In this document: in pieces, positions 4,959-50,826 of the stretch
Layout: each line of letters starts with the position of its first letter
How positions within the stretch are numbered: position 1 is the first letter of the stretch
Notes under the pieces: generated by a model
Database searches by the model: none
The model's input: the letters and a program-made list of their open reading frames with translations, nothing else
Told to the model about the DNA's origin: nothing
Assembly: GCA_030649055.1 (NCBI GenBank)
Contig: JAUSGH010000001.1
Coordinates: 10,907 to 74,906, forward strand
Direction of reading: 5' to 3'
DNA: 64,000 bases
Source: a bacterium
GTDB lineage: Bacteria > Patescibacteriota > Minisyncoccia > UBA6257 > JAUSGH01
Translations under genes and position numbers: made by a program

Positions 4959-5058
4959 GCCAAATAGATTGGTGCGATTCCCGAGTTGATATCATCGCCT
5001 GGGAACACGACACTCATTCAAAAGTACTATAGCAGAGGAAGGGGTGCATTGTCAATAG

Positions 5059-5448
5059 CTAGAAAATATTCTCGTAATAATTTATTAGAAAATTATTTCC
5101 CAACTCTGTCAAGTACTCCGGAAAAAGCTGAACAGCGGCGACGTCCGCCCTCCATCCCCTCTCCCCTACTTGCTCCGGGTACTTTAATGCGTAGAATTCC
5201 GCGATCTTTTTGAACTTCTTTACCTTCGCCGAGGTCATATTGTCCTCCGGCTTTAACGCGGCTCCCCCGCCAGTAAGCAAGGTCTTTACCTCTATAAATA
5301 GAAGCAACCCATCTTTCGCCTTTGCAACGATGTCGATTTCACCGAATTTTTGCCGGTAGTTTCTTGCGATGATTTTGCAGCCACTTTTTACGAGGTGCTC
5401 TACGGCAAGCTCCTCGCCGAGATCACCGATGGTTTTGGTTGATGTCAT
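5059..5448 (-). CDS. yraN: YraN/UPF0102 family endonuclease
   Basis: GDLGEELAVEHLVKSGCKIIARNYRQKFGEIDIVA...LLFIEVKT matches UPF0102. Start trimmed to the internal ATG (MTSTKTIG). Confidence 0.75.
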   Translation of the reverse strand: MTSTKTIGDLGEELAVEHLVKSGCKIIARNYRQKFGEIDIVAKAKDGLLLFIEVKTLLTGGGAALKPEDNMTSAKVKKFKKIAEFYALKYPEQVGERGWRADVAAVQLFPEYLTELGNNFLINYYENIF

Positions 5449-24785: not shown

Positions 24786-24871
24786 GCCCTCGTGGTGCAA
24801 CTGGCAGACACGCAGCGCTTAGGACGCTGTCCCCTAAAGGGTTGGAGGTTCAAATCCTCCCGAGGGCACCA
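24786..24871 (+). tRNA. tRNA-Leu (anticodon TAG), class II with long variable arm, CCA encoded
   Basis: Acceptor gccctcg/cgagggc, anticodon stem cagcg/cgctg with loop cttagga, T-arm ggagg-ttcaaat-cctcc, 3' acca. Confidence 0.75.
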
Positions 24872-26673: not shown

Positions 26674-27582
26674 TTATCTCCGTCTTCCGTGAAAACTTTT
26701 ATGAATTTCTTTCAGTTCTTTGTTGGTGAGGTGGGTATACACTTGCGTCGTTGAAACATTGCTGTGTCCGAGGAGTTCCTGCACCGAGCGGAGATCCGCG
26801 CCGTTCACGAGGAGGTCGGTGGCAAAAAGATGGCGCAAGCCATGCGGAGTGAGTCGCTTCCCGACAATGCCGGCTTTCTTGCCATAGTAATGAATAAGCC
26901 GCTGCACGGTGCGCGGAATGATGCGCCCCAACACCTTCGGCTGCTTCGCTTTGCTCATGCTGACAAACAGCGCTTCGTCGGCATCACCGCGCCCGGCGAG
27001 ATATGTGTCAACGGCTTTCCTTGCGCGGTCGGAGATAAACACTACGCGTAGCTTGTCTCCTTTGCCGCGCACGGTGATTTCACCTTGCTTGAAGTTAAGG
27101 TAGCGGCTTAATTTGCAAAGTTCCGAAACGCGCAGTCCCGTGGAGAAAAGCATTTCAAGAATTGCGCGATCGCGGAGCGCGCGGAGATCGGTGCCCGAAG
27201 GCGCGGCAAGCAGGCGTTCCAGTTCGGCATATTCAATAATTTCAATTTGCCGGTCGCCGAGCTTTGGGAGTTCTATTTTTTCGGGAGAGGGAACAACGTA
27301 ATCCTGCTTCGCGAGATATTTCAGAAAATTGCGGATAGCGATGACGTAGTAGCTTTGGGTGCTTTTCTTGAGCGGCTCGCCGGATGGGGCGCTGGTGCGG
27401 GCGAGCGCGAGGCGAAAATCCTTTATTTTATCAAGGGTGAAATTACGCAACGTCGTGACGCCGGACTGCTTGATGAAATGACGCAAATAGCGCTCGTAAT
27501 TCTCGCGCGTTTTTGGCGAGCGGTTTTTCTCAACTTCAAGGTAGTCCAGATATTCTTTTAAAAGTTTTTCAATCTCGATCAT
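26674..27582 (-). CDS. Tyrosine site-specific recombinase XerC/XerD family
   Basis: C-terminal catalytic region HGLRHLFATDLLVNGADLRSVQELLGHSNVSTTQVYTHL with R..HxxR..Y. Start set at MIEIEKLLKEYLDYL. Confidence 0.8.
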   Translation of the reverse strand: MIEIEKLLKEYLDYLEVEKNRSPKTRENYERYLRHFIKQSGVTTLRNFTLDKIKDFRLALARTSAPSGEPLKKSTQSYYVIAIRNFLKYLAKQDYVVPSPEKIELPKLGDRQIEIIEYAELERLLAAPSGTDLRALRDRAILEMLFSTGLRVSELCKLSRYLNFKQGEITVRGKGDKLRVVFISDRARKAVDTYLAGRGDADEALFVSMSKAKQPKVLGRIIPRTVQRLIHYYGKKAGIVGKRLTPHGLRHLFATDLLVNGADLRSVQELLGHSNVSTTQVYTHLTNKELKEIHKSFHGRRR

Positions 27583-27721
27583 TATCTTCAGTATACATTG
27601 TGCGACACATGGGGAACATGTATTGAGTATCGAGTATTGAGAAGTGAGTATGGGATGCATACGCTCAGCATTTGTTTGGCATACTGTCTTCTCTATACTC
27701 AATACAGCATACTTCGCAAAG

Positions 27722-27749
27722 TTGCATCTTTTTGCGTATCGCGTATAAT
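27722..27749 (+). promoter_or_regulatory. Sigma70-like promoter upstream of ftsH
   Basis: TTGCAT, 16-nt spacer, TATAAT. A second extended -10 TGTATAAT lies at 27773-27780, only 10 nt before the ATG. Confidence 0.5.
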
Positions 27750-27790
27750 TTACGGAATACCGCAAGCACGTTGTATAATGAAGTCATCGT

Positions 27791-30551: not shown

Positions 30552-30629
30552 TGGACCCGGTTTGCTTAGGCATCCGGGTCCGCTCTATTTGAAAATATGT
30601 CGGCGAAGCAGTATGATATGAATGCAAAT

Positions 30630-30771
30630 GCGCCCGTAGCTCAATGGTTAGAGCACCGAGCTTCCAATCGGCAGCGAGGATGGAGTAAAGTTGTGGCAAT
30701 GCGCCTGTAGCTCAATGGTTAGAGCACCGAGCTTCCAATCGGCAGCGAGGATGGAGTAAAGTTGTGGCGTT
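30630..30771 (+). pseudogene. Two tandem 71-bp units, each a tRNA 5' half plus a 37-nt spacer
   Basis: Unit 1 at 30630-30700 has acceptor gcgcccg, and unit 2 at 30701-30771 has acceptor gcgcctg. Both read ..gtagctcaatggttagagcaccgagctt + ccaatcggcagcgaggatggagtaaagttgtggc and lack an anticodon loop 3' side, T-arm and 3' acceptor. Confidence 0.7.
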
Positions 30772-30844
30772 GGGCGTGTAGCTCAATGGTTAGAGCACCG
30801 AGCTTATACCTCGGTGGTTCCTGGTTCGAGTCCAGGCACGCCCA
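30772..30844 (+). tRNA. tRNA-Ile (anticodon TAT)
   Basis: Acceptor gggcgtg/cacgccc, D-arm gctc-aatggtta-gagc, anticodon stem ccgag/ctcgg with loop cttatac, T-arm cctgg-ttcgagt-ccagg. No CCA encoded. Confidence 0.7.
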
Positions 30845-30890
30845 CAAATTTATTACATCCGAGCGAACCGATTGCATGCTAAAGGCATGG

Positions 30891-30927
30891 ACCTCGGTGG
30901 TTCCTGGTTCGAGTCCAGGCAGGCGCA
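30891..30927 (+). pseudogene. Orphan tRNA 3' half (anticodon-stem 3' strand, T-arm, acceptor caggcgc)
   Basis: acctcggtggttcctggttcgagtccaggcaggcgca. Its acceptor strand is complementary to the gcgcctg of 5'-half unit 2, implying a tRNA split by about 150 bp that contains the intact tRNA-Ile. A third 3'-end copy (tccaggcacgcccacaaatttta) lies at 31361-31385. Confidence 0.65.
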
Positions 30928-31639
30928 CAAATTTTATAATCAGCTTAATTGTTGATTATAAAATTTTGCGCCCGGACTCGAATGGGAAAGGGGTCGGGAA
31001 AACGGGAGTTTTCCCGTGGAGGAAGTGGACCCTATCGCAATTCTTGCTCTCGGCGCGTTGCGCTCCGCGCGCGTGAGCACAAGAAGCGACGACGAGGTTG
31101 TATGCTCTTGCATACGCCGAGGAGGAGCGACGCCGTGATTCGCGCGCGTGGTGCGCAACCCTTCGGGAAGCCGCATCTTGCCGCACATCGCAACGTTGCT
31201 CGTCGATTCATGTATCCCAGGGGATACACTTCACTCCTCGCGCCTTGCGCTGCGCCTAGCAATCTGCGGCTTCGCGCCAGAGATAAGAATTGCGATAGGG
31301 TCCGAACCGCTGGGTTTCAAAGCGCAAGCCCCGCAATGCGGGGCTGAGCAGTGAGATGTCCAGGCACGCCCACAAATTTTAAAACCAGAAGGAGGCGCGC
31401 TGTGGAAAACCCTCTTGCGCCTATGTGTCGCGATTTGTTATATATAAATGGTATGAAAAATGGTCGGCAACAGTTTACGTATGTCATGATTACGACGTCG
31501 CTTACGCGGAGGTCGCTTTCTCTTCATTCGTAACGCAGCCGATTCATACGAACGAAACAAGAAAGAGGCCTTCGCGAAACCGGAGGCCTTTTTCGTTTCG
31601 GGGCAGATTTTGTGGTTCTTTGACAATTCGGAGGTCGTC

Positions 31640-46657: not shown

Positions 46658-47552
46658 AATGATTACACTGAAATGTTGACCTTAAAGCATAACCCCTGCG
46701 GCTCCTAGTCCTCCATAAAGAGGACAATTTCCAGAGCCGCGCACAGCGGCTTTTGTCGTTGTAAGGGGACCGGTGCTGACTGAAACGAACGGACATTGAT
46801 AAACAGGATCTGACAGAAAATTCTTTTTTGTCGGGTGCTCATAAGTAAATCAATGCAAATGAAAACGCAATTTCAAGAGTATTATCGAAAGCATTCAATG
46901 CTTCGATGATCGGTTTTACTGCTCAATATCTGCATGATGGCGGAGTATTGAGTACGCCTCGTTAAGTCGCCTCAGGCGACCGCGAGGTTGCACGCGTTGA
47001 ATTCAGAGCGTGTATAAGGGCGTATGGTGGATGCCTAGACACAAAATGGCGATGAAGGACGCAGCATAACTGCGATAAGCTTCGGGGAGGTGTGTAGCAA
47101 CCTTTGATCCGGAGATTTCCGAATGGGGAAACCCTGCGCGGTAAACCCGCGTAACGCATGCGATTAAACGCGCATGTGAGCAGACCCGCTGAAGTGAAAC
47201 ATCTCAGTAAGCGGAGGAATAAAAATAGATTAGATTCCCCAAGTAGCGGCGAGCGAAAAGGGAACAGCCTAAACTTTAGTGTGTGCAGCAATGTATACGC
47301 TGGAGGGTTGCAAGGGTAAGACATTTTTGCGTATCGCAAAGCTCTCGTTAAACAGGGCTGTGCGATTCGCGGAAGATTGGTTACAAATTGCTTCGTTAGC
47401 TGAAGCTTCTGGAAAGAAGCGCCAAAGTGAGTGATAGCCTCGTAAGCGAAAACAAAGCAACCAATTCGTTTTATTTCTTAAGTACCTCGAGACCACAACA
47501 TCTCGAGGGAATCCGCCAGTACTATCTGGTAAGGCTAAATACATTTTGTGAT

Positions 47553-47589
<37 letters not shown>

Positions 47590-49458
47590 CAGCCCGGCGA
47601 GGGCGCTGAAATAGTACCTGAAACCATATGTCTACAAGGACTAGAAGTCCAACCACTGAGCAATCAGTGGCGGACAACTAGGTGCCTATTGAAGAATGAG
47701 CCAACGACTTTACGTTTACTGCTTGTCTAAGTCGCTTCATGCGACGGAGGCATAGGGAAACCGAGTGTTAATAGCGCGTTCTCTTATTTATGACCGAGTA
47801 GCTGGTATGCTTCCAGCGTTCGGTCATAGATGAGAAGGCAGTAAGTGTAAGACCCGAAGCCAAGGCGAGCTTGCCCTGACCAGGATGAACCCGAGCGAAA
47901 GCGAGGGGGAGGTCCGAACCAGTTGATTGTGCAAAATCTTTGGATGAGTTGGGGTAAGAAGTGAAAAGCTAATCGAGCTTGGTAATAGCTGGTTCTCTCC
48001 GAAATAGTTTTAGGACTAGCGTTCCGCAAAAACCGTATGGGGGTAGAGCACTGGTTGATTCGTATTGGGGGAAACCTCGGCGCATCAGTCAAACTCCGAA
48101 TACCATACGGGACGCGGGATAGTCAGACTGTGGGGGCAAAGCTCCATGGTCGCGAGGGGAATAGCCCAGACCGTCGTCTAAGGTCCCTAAATTCTTGCTA
48201 AGTGTAAAAGGTAGTCATGCCCCAGAGACAGATAGGAGGTTGGCTTAGAGGTAGCCATCCTTTAAAGAGTGTGTAACAACTCACTATTCGATGGGTCGTG
48301 GCGCCAAAAATGTACCGGGGCTAAGCAAGATACCGACGACACGGGTGTCCATGACTTCGGTCGTGGACGCGGTAGGAGAGCATTCTGATTGCTGTGAAGG
48401 TTCATCCGTGAGGAGGACTGGAGCGTTCAGGAGTGAGAATGTTGGCATGAGTAACCATCAAATCCGATGAGAAATCGGATCCCCGAAAATCCAAGGTTTC
48501 CGTGGCAATGGCAATCAACCACGGGTTAGGCGATCCTAAGGCAATGGCGAAAACCGTAGCCGATGGGTAGCCGGTTAATATTCCGGCCCGCGCTTATTTG
48601 TGCGATGGGGTGACGGAGGAAAAAAGGTTGAGCGTCTCAATGGTTTGACGTCGCTGATGATAAGGAATGTGTTCTTGGCAAATCCGGAGCACTGTGTTTA
48701 ATCGCGAATTCCGCGCGTCGGCGTAAGGCCAAGTTTTACTTGGCTAATTCAACTGAAGAGCCTTCCAAGAAAAACCTCTAAGTTTAGGATAAGCGCATCG
48801 TACCGTAAACCGACACAGGTGGGTGAGGCGAGACGCCTCAGGGGAACGAGTGAGTCTTGGTCAAGGAACTAGGCAAAAAAGCGGCCGTACCTTCGGTATA
48901 AGGCCTGCCCGTCACGCCGCAAGGTGTGCATGGGCTGCAACAAAAGTACATTTGGCGACTGTTTATCAAAAACACAGCTTCCTGCTAACTCGTAAGAGGA
49001 TGTATAGGAGGTGACACTTGACCGATGCGAGAAGGTTAACGGTGGGTGTGTATTCGAAAGCAATTTTGGATATGCTCACTGCCCGAAGCCCTCGTCAATG
49101 TCAGCGGTAACTATAACCGTTCTAAGGTAGCGCAATTCCTTTCCGGGTAAGTTCCGGAGCGCATGAATAGTGTAACGATCGAATGACTGTCTCGACCAAG
49201 AGCTCGGTGAAATTGCGATTCCCGTGAAGACGCGGGATACCTGTAACGGGACGAAAAGACCCCGGGAGCTTTACTGTAGTTTGATATTGGCTTTAACGTT
49301 TTTCTGCGTAGCGTAGTGGCGAGGGTATGAAACCTGGTTTTCGGATCAGGTGGACCCGACAATGAAACAGCCATCTGGAAAATGTTAAAATCTAACCTTT
49401 ACGGCAAAAACGTATTGGGACAGTGTCTGATGGGCAGTTTTAATGGGGCGTTATCCTC

Positions 49459-49793
49459 AACAAAACGATTGACATCCGTTCAATCGAGGGGGTTAACGTA
49501 ATAAAAAATTCAGCTATATGCTGGGACATCCGTGCATCTTCAAGTACTCGGGCGCTTCGCGCTCAGTGAAAATCTTGAAGTGGCATCCGCCAGGTGGCGG
49601 ATCGACGGACAATCAGCAGGCAACCTCCGACGGACATCGGAGAGAGTCCTCAACGACTATACGCTGAACATCGTGATGTCACTCGCGATGAAGATATAGT
49701 CTGACCTCTGTGGCGACACAGAGAGTTGTGGTAGAAATGCCGCGCCGATCACCGGCAACTAAATTTTAGAGTTGCTGGCGATGTGTAACAAAT
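49459..49793 (+). other. ORF-less insertion of about 335 nt in 23S next to the P-loop region (candidate group I intron)
   Basis: Flanking sequence reads ...ggcgttatcctc | insertion | ctaaaaagtaacggaggag. The flanks together restore the conserved GGTCTCCTCCTAAAGAGTAACGGAGGAG. Boundaries +/- 2 nt. Confidence 0.55.
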
Positions 49794-50127
49794 GCCTAAA
49801 AAGTAACGGAGGAGTTTATTAAGGTTGGCTTAGCGCGAATGGAAACCGCGCTGGACGTGTAAACGCAAAAGCCAGCTTGACGGCAAGACCTACAAGTCGC
49901 GCCGGTGCGAAAGCAGAAGTTAGTGACCCGATGATCCGTCATAGAATGGTCAGAGACATCGGCTAAAAGTTACCCCGGGGATAACAGGCTAGTCTGGTCC
50001 GAGAGTTCCTATCGACGACCAGGCTCGGCACCTCGATGTCGGCTCGCCCTAGCGCGGAGGTGGAGAAGCTTCCAAGCGTATGGCTGTTCGCCATTTAAAA
50101 GGGCACGTGAGCTGGGTTCAAACCGTC

Positions 50128-50401
50128 AACGAAAAAGAACCTAGAGAAGACATCAACAAACGGCGGCGCTTTGCCGTAAGGCAAAGCTGAGAAGTTGACT
50201 CATATCGGTGAAGTCCTACAAAATCTTTAACCTGGGTTTTGAGGATAACCCCGAGGGAAGGTCCGATGAACGTCGGACCCCCGTAGAGACTTGATCGTAA
50301 GGGATCGGAATCCGGTTTTATAATCGGGTTAATACGTCAACCCTCCGATGAATATCGGAGTGATGGTATAGTCCAAACAATTAGTAATAATTGAGTATTG
50401 C
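50128..50401 (+). other. ORF-less insertion of about 274 nt in 23S at the I-CreI-type homing site (candidate group I intron)
   Basis: Flanks aaccgtc | insertion | gtgagacaggttagtc restore the conserved AACGTCGTGAGACAGTTCGG. Boundaries +/- 2 nt. Confidence 0.55.
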
Positions 50402-50826
50402 GTGAGACAGGTTAGTCTCTACCTGTTACAGGCGTGTGATGCTTGAGGGCAGTCGACCCTAGTACGAGAGGACCGGGTTGAACGAACCTCTGGTCTACCA
50501 GCTTTAGTACCAACTGAATCGCTGGGTAGCTAAGTTCGGAAGGGATAAGCGCTGAAAGCATATAAGCGCGAAGCCTAGCCCAAGATAAGGCATCTTTCCG
50601 CAAGGAAGCAGTCCGTAGAAGATTACTACGTTGATAGGTCGCAGGTGTAAGATCAGTAATGATTTCAGCCGAGCGATACTAATAGACTGTCACACGCTCT
50701 GAATTGAGCGCATGAAAGTAGCGTTCTCTGTAGAAATATAGAGGGCGCCAGTAAAACCGATCATCAAAGCATTGAACCCCCGCCTTTCGGCGGGGGGAAA
50801 GGGTTAGAAAAAACAACCTTTTTGTT

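Follow-up and report, generated by a model that had tools for sequence, protein, structure and literature searches.

We examined a GC-rich block without open reading frames (ORFs) at positions 30967-31357 of a 64,000-nucleotide (nt) stretch of the Patescibacteriota contig JAUSGH010000001.1 (assembly GCA_030649055.1), hereafter the window. On balance, we consider it probable that a small mobile insertion, non-autonomous and without ORFs, occupies the 3′ end of tRNA-Ile(UAU) in a Harrisonbacteria-like Patescibacteria genome and that the block is its cargo. It contains a recurring unit of ~130 nt (~170 bp when one repeat and the trailer palindrome are counted) and, nested within it, a large hairpin domain, H2 (Table 1). 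The unit and its relatives are best read as a small, previously undescribed family of elements that target tRNA 3′ ends, carry a conserved single-strand fold and are related to known non-coding mobile elements. A first-pass annotation, made from the sequence alone, had offered two readings, a small integrated element with the block as its cargo and a structured RNA of a new kind. The first suggestion gains support from the absence of the block at the orthologous tRNA-Ile slot of five syntenic relatives, from tRNA 3′-end repeats at its borders and from the same small unit at another tRNA in other genomes; the second is supported in the sense of a structured nucleic acid, as substitutions between copies keep the fold.

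Most of the first description of the block stood up to re-examination. The start motif TGCGCCCGGACTCGAATGGG (30967-30986) and the local hairpins GTATGCTCTTGCATAC, CCCTTCGGG and GCCCCGCAATGCGGGGC (the last at 31328-31344) were recovered, and the long-range inverted repeat is real, but it is a perfect 19-bp match (31027-31045 pairing with 31285-31303) rather than 16 bp, with the earlier coordinates shifted by 1-2 nt. With a GC fraction of 0.60-0.66, the block is richer than its immediate AT-rich intergenic spacers (0.41-0.47), as had been stated, but not richer than the adjacent genes (0.55-0.67; mean of the 64-kb window, 0.53). Its sequence also occurs in independent assemblies (L001 from Logan; L022 and L023 from two JGI samples; loci are denoted by L and a number), so it is not an assembly artefact. 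Independent assemblies are interrupted within the element or tRNA array, or at their margins (start of L001, equivalent to window 31274; start of L016, equivalent to window 30986; end of L020), which hints at repeats or population heterogeneity.

Patescibacteria metagenome-assembled genomes were retrieved by exact-match anchoring on the body of tRNA-Ile(UAU), several of them with FtsH adjoining the tRNA, and syntenic contigs, some named Candidatus Harrisonbacteria, were found via homologs of the downstream 142-aa ORF (ORF142) and the upstream HAD protein. Their common gene order comprises a Xer-like tyrosine recombinase, FtsH, HAD hydrolase, a promoter, one tRNA-Ile(UAU), a ~200-nt element with a terminator, ORF142 and glutamate dehydrogenase (GDH). 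In L014, L015, L016 and L018, the conserved ~200-nt element follows directly 3′ of the single tRNA-Ile with no block, and a 74-nt tRNA stands where the window has 750 bp (30629-31379). The presence of a single tRNA and the lack of the block in these syntenic relatives identify the block as an insertion specific to the lineage of the window, at the 3′ end of tRNA-Ile(UAU). L019 (equal to L022) is likewise without the block at this slot, but another insertion is present there. A clean empty site is seen in L020 (GCA_016182685.1). Its nested tRNA context matches that of L025, down to a D-loop insert that is 100% identical, and the sole difference between these two loci at the tRNA-Ile site is the unit. 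Empty tRNA-Leu sites exist in the window itself (24786-24871) and in L020.

The insert is flanked by direct repeats of the tRNA 3′ segment, in agreement with the repeats reported in the first-pass annotation: in the window, an exact 22-nt repeat (30830-30851 and 31358-31379) plus a 24-nt copy at 92% identity (30913-30936), in L025 a 15-nt repeat, and in L024 an imperfect repeat of ~24 nt. Anchoring on the tRNA anticodon arm in genome contigs and on the tRNA 3′ half in metagenome contigs yielded 12 Patescibacteria loci, which revealed the FtsH-tRNA-Ile synteny and nested tRNAs and none of which has the block; a search of genome contigs with the HAD protein gave no match.

The unit occurs with the same boundaries in three further genomes, once at tRNA-Ile (L025, GCA_016180745.1) and twice at tRNA-Leu (L024 and L016). 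It is ordered as 5′ arm, GGGAAAGGGGTC, hairpin H1, GTGGCGGA(A), optional H2, hairpin H3, a tail (with hairpin H4 in the Ile type) and a direct copy of the tRNA 3′ end. Its start is an inverted copy, and its end a direct copy, of the T-arm/acceptor 3′ segment of the local tRNA, the same segment being repeated on the upstream tRNA. The arms are of Ile type in the window and L025 and of Leu type in L024 and L016. Because they follow the local tRNA in this way, the start that had been likened to the 5′ ends of transfer-messenger RNA (tmRNA) is accounted for: the echo is present in the sequence, but its source is an inverted copy of the T-loop/acceptor 3′ end of the adjacent tRNA.

The copies differ in what they carry between these ends. 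L024 was found by a phmmer search with the spurious 132-aa ORF of the block, whose single match, P0018, is encoded in this JGI contig (equal to L022 and L023); there, tRNA-Leu(UAG) is followed by a perfect palindrome, TGCTCCCGGGAGTTGAAC-GGGAAAGGGGTC, a different H1 hairpin, GTGGCGGAAAT, the 277-nt domain, GAACCGCTGGGTTT and, as the tail, a degenerate 3′ end of tRNA-Leu. The tails of both L024 and L016 match the 3′ end of the window’s own tRNA-Leu (24786-24871). L016 is 92% identical over its positions 1-39 to window 30986-31024 (blastn), then has a 17-nt hairpin in place of the window’s 277 nt, and similarity picks up again at GAACCGCTGGGTTT. L025 has a 134-nt unit at the tRNA-Ile slot, without H2, and shares with the window the trailer palindrome, the tail (AGCGCAAG, H4, CTGAGCAGTGAGATG) and the terminal tRNA-Ile 3′ end. 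As a separate observation, the unit linker CCGTGGCGGAAATGGA (L024 8049-8064) matches the acceptor/D-arm region of the adjacent tRNA-Leu, CCGTGGCGGAACTGGA (L024 7888-7903), at 15 of 16 positions, and the core could be partly of tRNA ancestry. We considered and rejected the whole unit as a permuted or degenerate tRNA-Leu, for which this linker match is the only resemblance and no complete cloverleaf can be drawn.

Among the four copies, H2 is present in the window and L024 only, at the same position (L024 8063-8340) and with 89.6-89.9% identity. Its closing helix spans ~30 bp, 19 of them perfect, and bears two long arms with imperfect pairing and the small CCCTTCGGG hairpin. For the same pair of genomes (window and L022), nucleotide identity is 89.9% in H2, 68.4% in the HAD gene, 81.8% in the recombinase gene, 87.5% in FtsH as a whole and 68.5% at FtsH third codon positions; the identity of H2 above that of third codon positions indicates either constraint on H2 or a recent exchange of it. 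In the window, H1 is as in L016, H2 as in L024 and the tail as in L025, a mosaic that favours exchange or modularity. Neither the 64-kb window nor 230 kb of loci yielded a second copy, and searching the window and 24 loci with a covariance model of the core added none. Comparison by blastn with phages returned only a tRNA-like 34-nt match, and with plasmids nothing; exact-pattern scans of viral contigs for the inverted-repeat arm, the tRNA 3′ half, the H1 region and the core motif were also empty. Full-text literature searches returned no description of the unit or of nested tRNA cassettes.

The first-pass annotation had called the block highly structured, and this was borne out against dinucleotide shuffles. 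The plus strand of 30969-31375 has a minimum free energy (MFE) of -212.4 kcal/mol compared with -162.7 +/- 5.7 for shuffled sequences (z = -8.7; 0 of 100 shuffles as good), and the minus strand reaches -204.2, also at z = -8.7. In the predicted fold, helix P1 is formed by the two arms of the unit and closes a cloverleaf-like multibranch around H1, H3 and H4; the 5′ arm also pairs with the 3′ end and trailer of the upstream tRNA in a 35-38-bp palindrome.

Substitutions between the window and L024 break 0 of 116 consensus pairs, with 6 double compensations and 9 one-sided changes that keep G-U pairs. To avoid circularity, the MFE structure of the window alone was used as a second reference. Of its 118 pairs, 2 are broken, whereas random placement of equally many substitutions of the same types would break 21.3 +/- 3.0 (P < 5e-5); within H2, 1 broken pair is observed and 13.9 +/- 2.4 are expected (P < 5e-5). 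As a caveat on fold conservation, the MFE structure of L024 alone has several pairs that the window lacks. Overall, substitutions between these two copies affect 9.7% of paired columns and 21.9% of unpaired ones. When all four copies are compared at H1 and H3, 96.4% of cells are paired and 4 pairs covary: H1 has compensatory changes in L024 and L025, and the closing pair of H3 is G-U, A-U or G-C depending on the copy. H4 shows three compensated pairs between the window and L025 (GCCCCGC/GCGGGGC versus GCCGACC/GGTCGGC). Covariation in homologous copies, proposed earlier as a check, is therefore present, but in only 2-4 sequences.

The two strands differ. One-sided changes keep pairing in 8 cases and break it in 1 on the plus strand, compared with 2 kept and 7 broken on the minus strand, and plus-strand MFEs are lower for the L024 body (-191.1 versus -164.8), the L025 unit (-69.6 versus -61.3) and likewise the window. 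The single-stranded joiners GGGAAAGGGGTC and GTGGCGGA and the loop GCTG are invariant while the stems vary. Overall, the substitutions that separate the copies keep the predicted fold and are biased towards the plus strand.

These features make a non-coding RNA (ncRNA) gene the main and a serious rival to a mobile element. Here, the block would be a free-standing, plus-strand structured RNA gene linked to tRNAs, with a cloverleaf-like core (P1, H1, H3, H4), conserved joiners and a variable arm (H2), and its position would vary because tRNA loci are recombination hot spots; we hold this possible rather than probable. It would account for compensatory and G-U changes that preserve a fold with the plus strand favoured, for joiners and a GCTG loop that stay fixed while stems change, for conservation of H2 above synonymous sites, for the -10-like TATAAA in the palindrome just upstream, and for the fact that all copies run in the same direction as the upstream tRNA. 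Set against it is the absence of the unit, within the reach of the contigs, from L020 (at both the tRNA-Ile and tRNA-Leu sites) and from L014 and L018 (at the tRNA-Ile slot only), so that any function would be dispensable. Moreover, the ends copy whichever tRNA adjoins, unlike those of a normal gene, the 277-nt arm is found in some copies only, neither a terminator nor a consistent downstream gene follows the block, and no Rfam family matches.

For the mobile mini-element that we favour, the unit would be moved by site-specific recombination at the tRNA T-arm/acceptor segment, with a tyrosine recombinase acting in trans. A conserved Xer-like gene (26674-27765) is the candidate for this role; it sits between both target tRNAs (Leu and Ile) in every genome seen. 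The form under selection would be the folded plus strand, either as a single-stranded DNA (ssDNA) recombination substrate or as a transcript, and H2 would be a secondary hairpin insertion or expansion that does not belong to the minimal unit; hairpin-type insertions are common in this clade. An excised circle, if formed, would show the predicted junction …GAGATG + TCCAGGCAC…AAATTTT. Inside the insert there is no ORF with a Pfam match and no integrase.

Several points weigh against a mobile element. Only four copies are known, two of them with H2, and all 4 are oriented alike relative to the upstream tRNA. The nearest Phage_integrase gene is the Xer-like one, 3.2 kb off, and its synteny extends to relatives without the element, making its link to the element circumstantial. 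H2 has no target-site duplication, there being no direct repeat common to its flanks GGAAGT and GAACC. Simple schemes of inversion or integration fail to reproduce the observed order with its tRNA-matched inverted arm, and neither a circular nor an excised form was seen. A functional RNA would suit the high conservation and the strand bias equally well, and compensation in hairpins can come from template-switch mutation in quasi-palindromes without selection.

Template-switch mutagenesis of quasi-palindromes is a process that yields paired changes, and it is central to a third explanation, in which the block is an inert scar with neither mobility nor function of its own: larger integrative elements would have integrated and excised repeatedly at the tRNA, and palindromes would then have grown and been ‘corrected’ by template-switch errors. 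The locus is littered with tRNA halves and has no integrase within it, and tRNA fragments beside insertions are a classic, known footprint of integrase-bearing integrative elements (PMC9897764, PMC5495485). We nevertheless find a scar quite unlikely, given that the same small unit has the same boundaries at two different tRNAs in four genomes, that L020 and L025 differ by the unit alone, and that conservation exceeds that of synonymous sites; strand asymmetry and invariant unpaired motifs are also unexpected under neutral palindrome correction.

A broader proposal, which we advance tentatively and with considerable doubt, treats the unit as a new kind of structured element that mimics tRNA ends and whose folded plus strand (RNA or ssDNA) would itself be the substrate with which a Xer-like recombinase, or an RNA-processing or ligation route, moves it between tRNA genes. 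The unit would then be part of a wider, undescribed Patescibacteria system that inserts hairpin modules and tRNA cassettes with complementary flanking arms into tRNA loops and 3′ ends, replacing resident tRNA genes. Continual insertion and replacement of this kind would account for acceptor stems that change so quickly between close relatives.

The syntenic tRNA-Ile(UAU) genes themselves (window, L014, L016, L018, L019, L020 and L025) have acceptor stems that differ between nearly all of these genomes (GGGCGTG, GGCCCGT, GGGCCGG, GCGCCCG, GCGCCTG and GCGCGTG), and their bodies vary too, a pattern that points to repeated tRNA gene replacement rather than vertical drift. The tRNA-Leu(UAG) beside the recombinase gene lies in L020 (2817-2901) on the strand opposite to that in L022 (3081-3163) and in the window (24786-24871), and this flip suggests a local inversion at the hot spot.

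Known RNA classes were considered as a source of the fold. In the window, Rfam annotated only tRNAs, a 5S rRNA and a 3.7-kb 23S rRNA that contains a group I intron, and ARAGORN found four tRNAs. At the gathering threshold and at E <= 10, searches of the block in the window, L016, L024 and L025 returned only tRNAs and noise; the best match to the block was beta_tmRNA (7.6 bits, E = 9), confined to the palindrome. The Rfam comparison proposed in the first-pass annotation thus produced no family for the block, and the failure to find a tmRNA 3′ end or RNase P motifs reported there agrees with both programs. A divergent tmRNA, RNase P RNA or group I intron, suggested by the resemblance of 5′ GCGCCCG-GACTCGAAT-GGG to a tmRNA 5′ end, by the loose likeness of GGAGGAAGT to an RNase P P4 strand and by the presence of group I introns both in the window’s 23S rRNA and, frequently, in Patescibacteria tRNA genes (at position 35/36; PMC13011429), is largely refuted and, in our view, extremely improbable. 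ARAGORN detected no tmRNA in the window or L024 and no tag reading frame with a resume codon, and the tails of L016 and L024 yield no plausible tag. RNase P RNA had no Rfam match at E <= 10 in the window, L016, L024 or L025. The block shows no T-arm and no P/Q/R/S core, and the 277-nt domain that a large ribozyme would need is missing from L025 and L016.

A group I intron was rejected in particular because the core is absent and because splicing by the usual junction rules, with U as the last base of the 5′ exon and G as that of the intron, would leave one U too many. The group I model RF00028 found nothing in the block; this model, which is less sensitive for subgroup IA, does detect the 23S intron (49461-49723, 75.1 bits). 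The tRNA upstream of the unit is complete (in the window with 30891-30927 as its outer 3′ half, and in L025 and L024), leaving no interrupted RNA gene and thus nothing to splice. In passing, the 23S rRNA gene itself (47004-50703) spans 3.7 kb, with the group I intron and several other insertions relative to the bacterial model, and the window holds no 16S rRNA gene.

A small protein is refuted for practical purposes. The earlier statement that the block has no credible ORF needs one qualification, as a 132-aa frame (30949-31347) does cross it and a related ORF is called in L024, but it starts with TTG, lacks a ribosome-binding site and a Pfam match, and has an arginine-rich, junk-like composition. 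Its sole homolog among 1.84 billion representatives is the spurious overlapping ORF of the other copy, and the exchange of H1 and the presence or absence of H2 wreck the frame in the remaining copies.

Table 1. Features of the tRNA-Ile(UAU) locus in the window.
Feature	Position	Strand	Remarks
Promoter-like site: TTGAAA, 17-nt spacer, TATGAT	30589-30617	+	5′ of the whole tRNA array, outside the block
Extra tandem copy: tRNA-Ile 5′ half (acceptor GCGCCCG) and 36-nt arm X	30629-30699	+	71-nt period; 99% identical to the next copy
Outer tRNA-Ile 5′ half (30700-30734, acceptor GCGCCTG) and arm X (30735-30770)	30700-30770	+	Acceptor pairs perfectly with 30891-30927
Intact inner tRNA-Ile(UAU) (30772-30845) and trailer CAAATTT	30771-30851	+	75.7 bits
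Arm Y	30852-30890	+	Pairs with arm X in the predicted transcript fold; z = -5.55
Outer tRNA-Ile 3′ half (…CAGGCGCA) and trailer CAAATTTT	30891-30936	+	Layout alike in L025
Left, attL-like copy of the tRNA 3′-end repeat	30913-30936		24 nt, 92% identical to 31358-31381
AT-rich palindrome: tRNA trailer and its inverted copy	30929-30966		Arms 30929-30942 and 30953-30966; 14/14 bases paired
Unit 5′ arm TGCGCCCGGACTCGAATGG: inverted tRNA-Ile T-loop/acceptor 3′ end	30967-30985	+	5′ strand of helix P1
Unit core, 5′ part: conserved GAAAGGGGTC, hairpin H1 (30995-31016), linker GTGGAGGAAGT	30986-31026	+	
H2: 277-nt GC-rich, Y-shaped domain nested in the unit	31027-31303	+	Bulk of the flagged block
H3: small hairpin GAACC-GCTG-GGTTT	31304-31317	+	Loop invariant in 4/4 copies
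Ile-type tail: AGCGCAAG, hairpin H4 (31328-31344), CTGAGCAGTGAGAT	31318-31357	+	Common to L025
Right, attR-like repeat GTCCAGGCACGCCCACAAATTT: tRNA-Ile T-stem/acceptor 3′ end and trailer	31358-31379	+	Includes the 3′ strand of P1

The TTGAAAA motif of the promoter-like site is common to L014, L018 and L020, and AT-rich trailer palindromes equivalent to that of the window occur in L025 and L024; this palindrome may be a weak terminator or the carrier of the -10-like TATAAA. The tRNA array is itself nested: the intact tRNA-Ile(UAU) (30772-30845) with arms X and Y lies inside the anticodon loop of a second, perfectly matched tRNA-Ile (30700-30734/30891-30927), and the same design with unrelated arm sequences is present in L011 (5917-6166), L020 (6973-7217) and L025 (3944-4192). 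The acceptor GCGCCCG of the extra tandem copy (30629-30699) is one base off that of the next copy and matches both the inverted arm at 30967-30975 and the native tRNA of L018. A 54-nt two-hairpin insert occupies the D-loop of the outer tRNA-Ile in L020 (6988-7041) and L025 (3959-4012), where it is 100% identical, with a variant in L026 (~1071-1125). In L002, the D-loop of one tRNA encloses a complete tRNA-Val(GAC), ~120-290 nt downstream of tRNA-Ile (5013-5087, minus strand), and the flanks of the outer tRNA extend its acceptor stem (AAAACATAAAGT … ACTTTATGTTTT).

Downstream of the block, the ~200-nt intergenic element (31399-31600) comprises CTGTGGAAAAC, a long imperfect hairpin and the terminator GGCCTTCGCGAAA-CGGAGGCCTTTTTCG. 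It is conserved in six related genomes and lies upstream of ORF142 and the glutamate dehydrogenase gene. No Rfam family matches it, and the candidates for its identity are a leader, a riboswitch and a small RNA.

If the insertion is indeed a mobile element, these reduced Patescibacteria genomes harbour gene-less elements of extremely small size that carry conserved folds and home to the 3′ ends of tRNA genes, widening the size range and design of integrative elements. They would offer a handle on why these tRNA loci are mosaics of halves, nested tRNAs and hairpin inserts, and a candidate substrate for the conserved Xer-like recombinase beside ftsH. If the fold instead belongs to an RNA, it would represent a new class of tRNA-linked ncRNA with an expandable arm. 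On the practical side, inserts of this kind fragment assemblies and mislead the annotation of tRNAs in metagenome-assembled genomes.

Two RNA classes that the block recalls can be set apart from it. Group I introns of Patescibacteria tRNAs are found in the same phylum and are likewise structured, mostly ORF-less, a few hundred nt long and tRNA-associated (PMC13011429), but the block has no intron core or RF00028 match, follows an intact tRNA instead of lying in an anticodon loop, and does not obey the splice-site rules. With tmRNA (ssrA) it shares an acceptor-like 5′ heptamer followed by a GGAnTCGAn-GGG motif and the pairing of its 5′ and 3′ ends; it differs in lacking a T-arm, a tag ORF and pseudoknots, and its motif is the inverted neighbouring tRNA and changes with it.

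Among mobile DNAs, the element is most like a non-autonomous integrative element of the cis-mobilizable kind (CIME) or a miniature inverted-repeat transposable element (MITE), yet it has no internal integrase and, for H2, no target-site duplication. Like CIMEs and other elements integrated at tRNA genes, it occupies a tRNA 3′ end, is bordered by direct repeats of the T-arm/acceptor segment, encodes no recombinase of its own, and is present or absent among relatives with empty sites to match. It is far smaller (~170 bp, or ~450 bp with H2), has no genes and no known parent element, and adds an extra inverted attachment-site (att) copy matched to the local tRNA as well as a conserved single-strand fold. 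In common with MITEs such as the Correia elements of Neisseria and RUP of pneumococci, it is short, ORF-less and hairpin-forming, and H2 has terminal inverted repeats (19 bp perfect, extending to ~30 bp). Unlike in MITEs, however, H2 has no target-site duplication, no related transposase was found, no second copy lies within 64 kb, and the unit arms derive from the target tRNA rather than being element-specific. A 122-nt Y-shaped hairpin insert in L026 (2061-2182; closing stem CCCCGTTAGAAGT/ACTTCTAACGGGG), located inside the conserved 200-nt element and surrounded by TTTAC direct repeats, is MITE-like; it has the overall shape of H2 and an unrelated sequence.

In layout, the unit has a parallel in substrates that recombine as folded single strands. 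The attP(+) site of the CTX phage is a folded single-strand substrate used by XerCD, with the order att, short spacer, inverted att, cargo and att. The unit resembles attP(+) and integron attC sites in this arrangement and in a Xer-like tyrosine recombinase gene nearby, and may also resemble them in structure that is kept above sequence and in strand bias. It departs from them in that its target is a tRNA 3′ end rather than dif or attI and in having no replication or phage genes. H1 and H4 are exchanged between copies with full compensation and one-sided changes favour the plus strand, a signal that an RNA would give in the same way as folded ssDNA.

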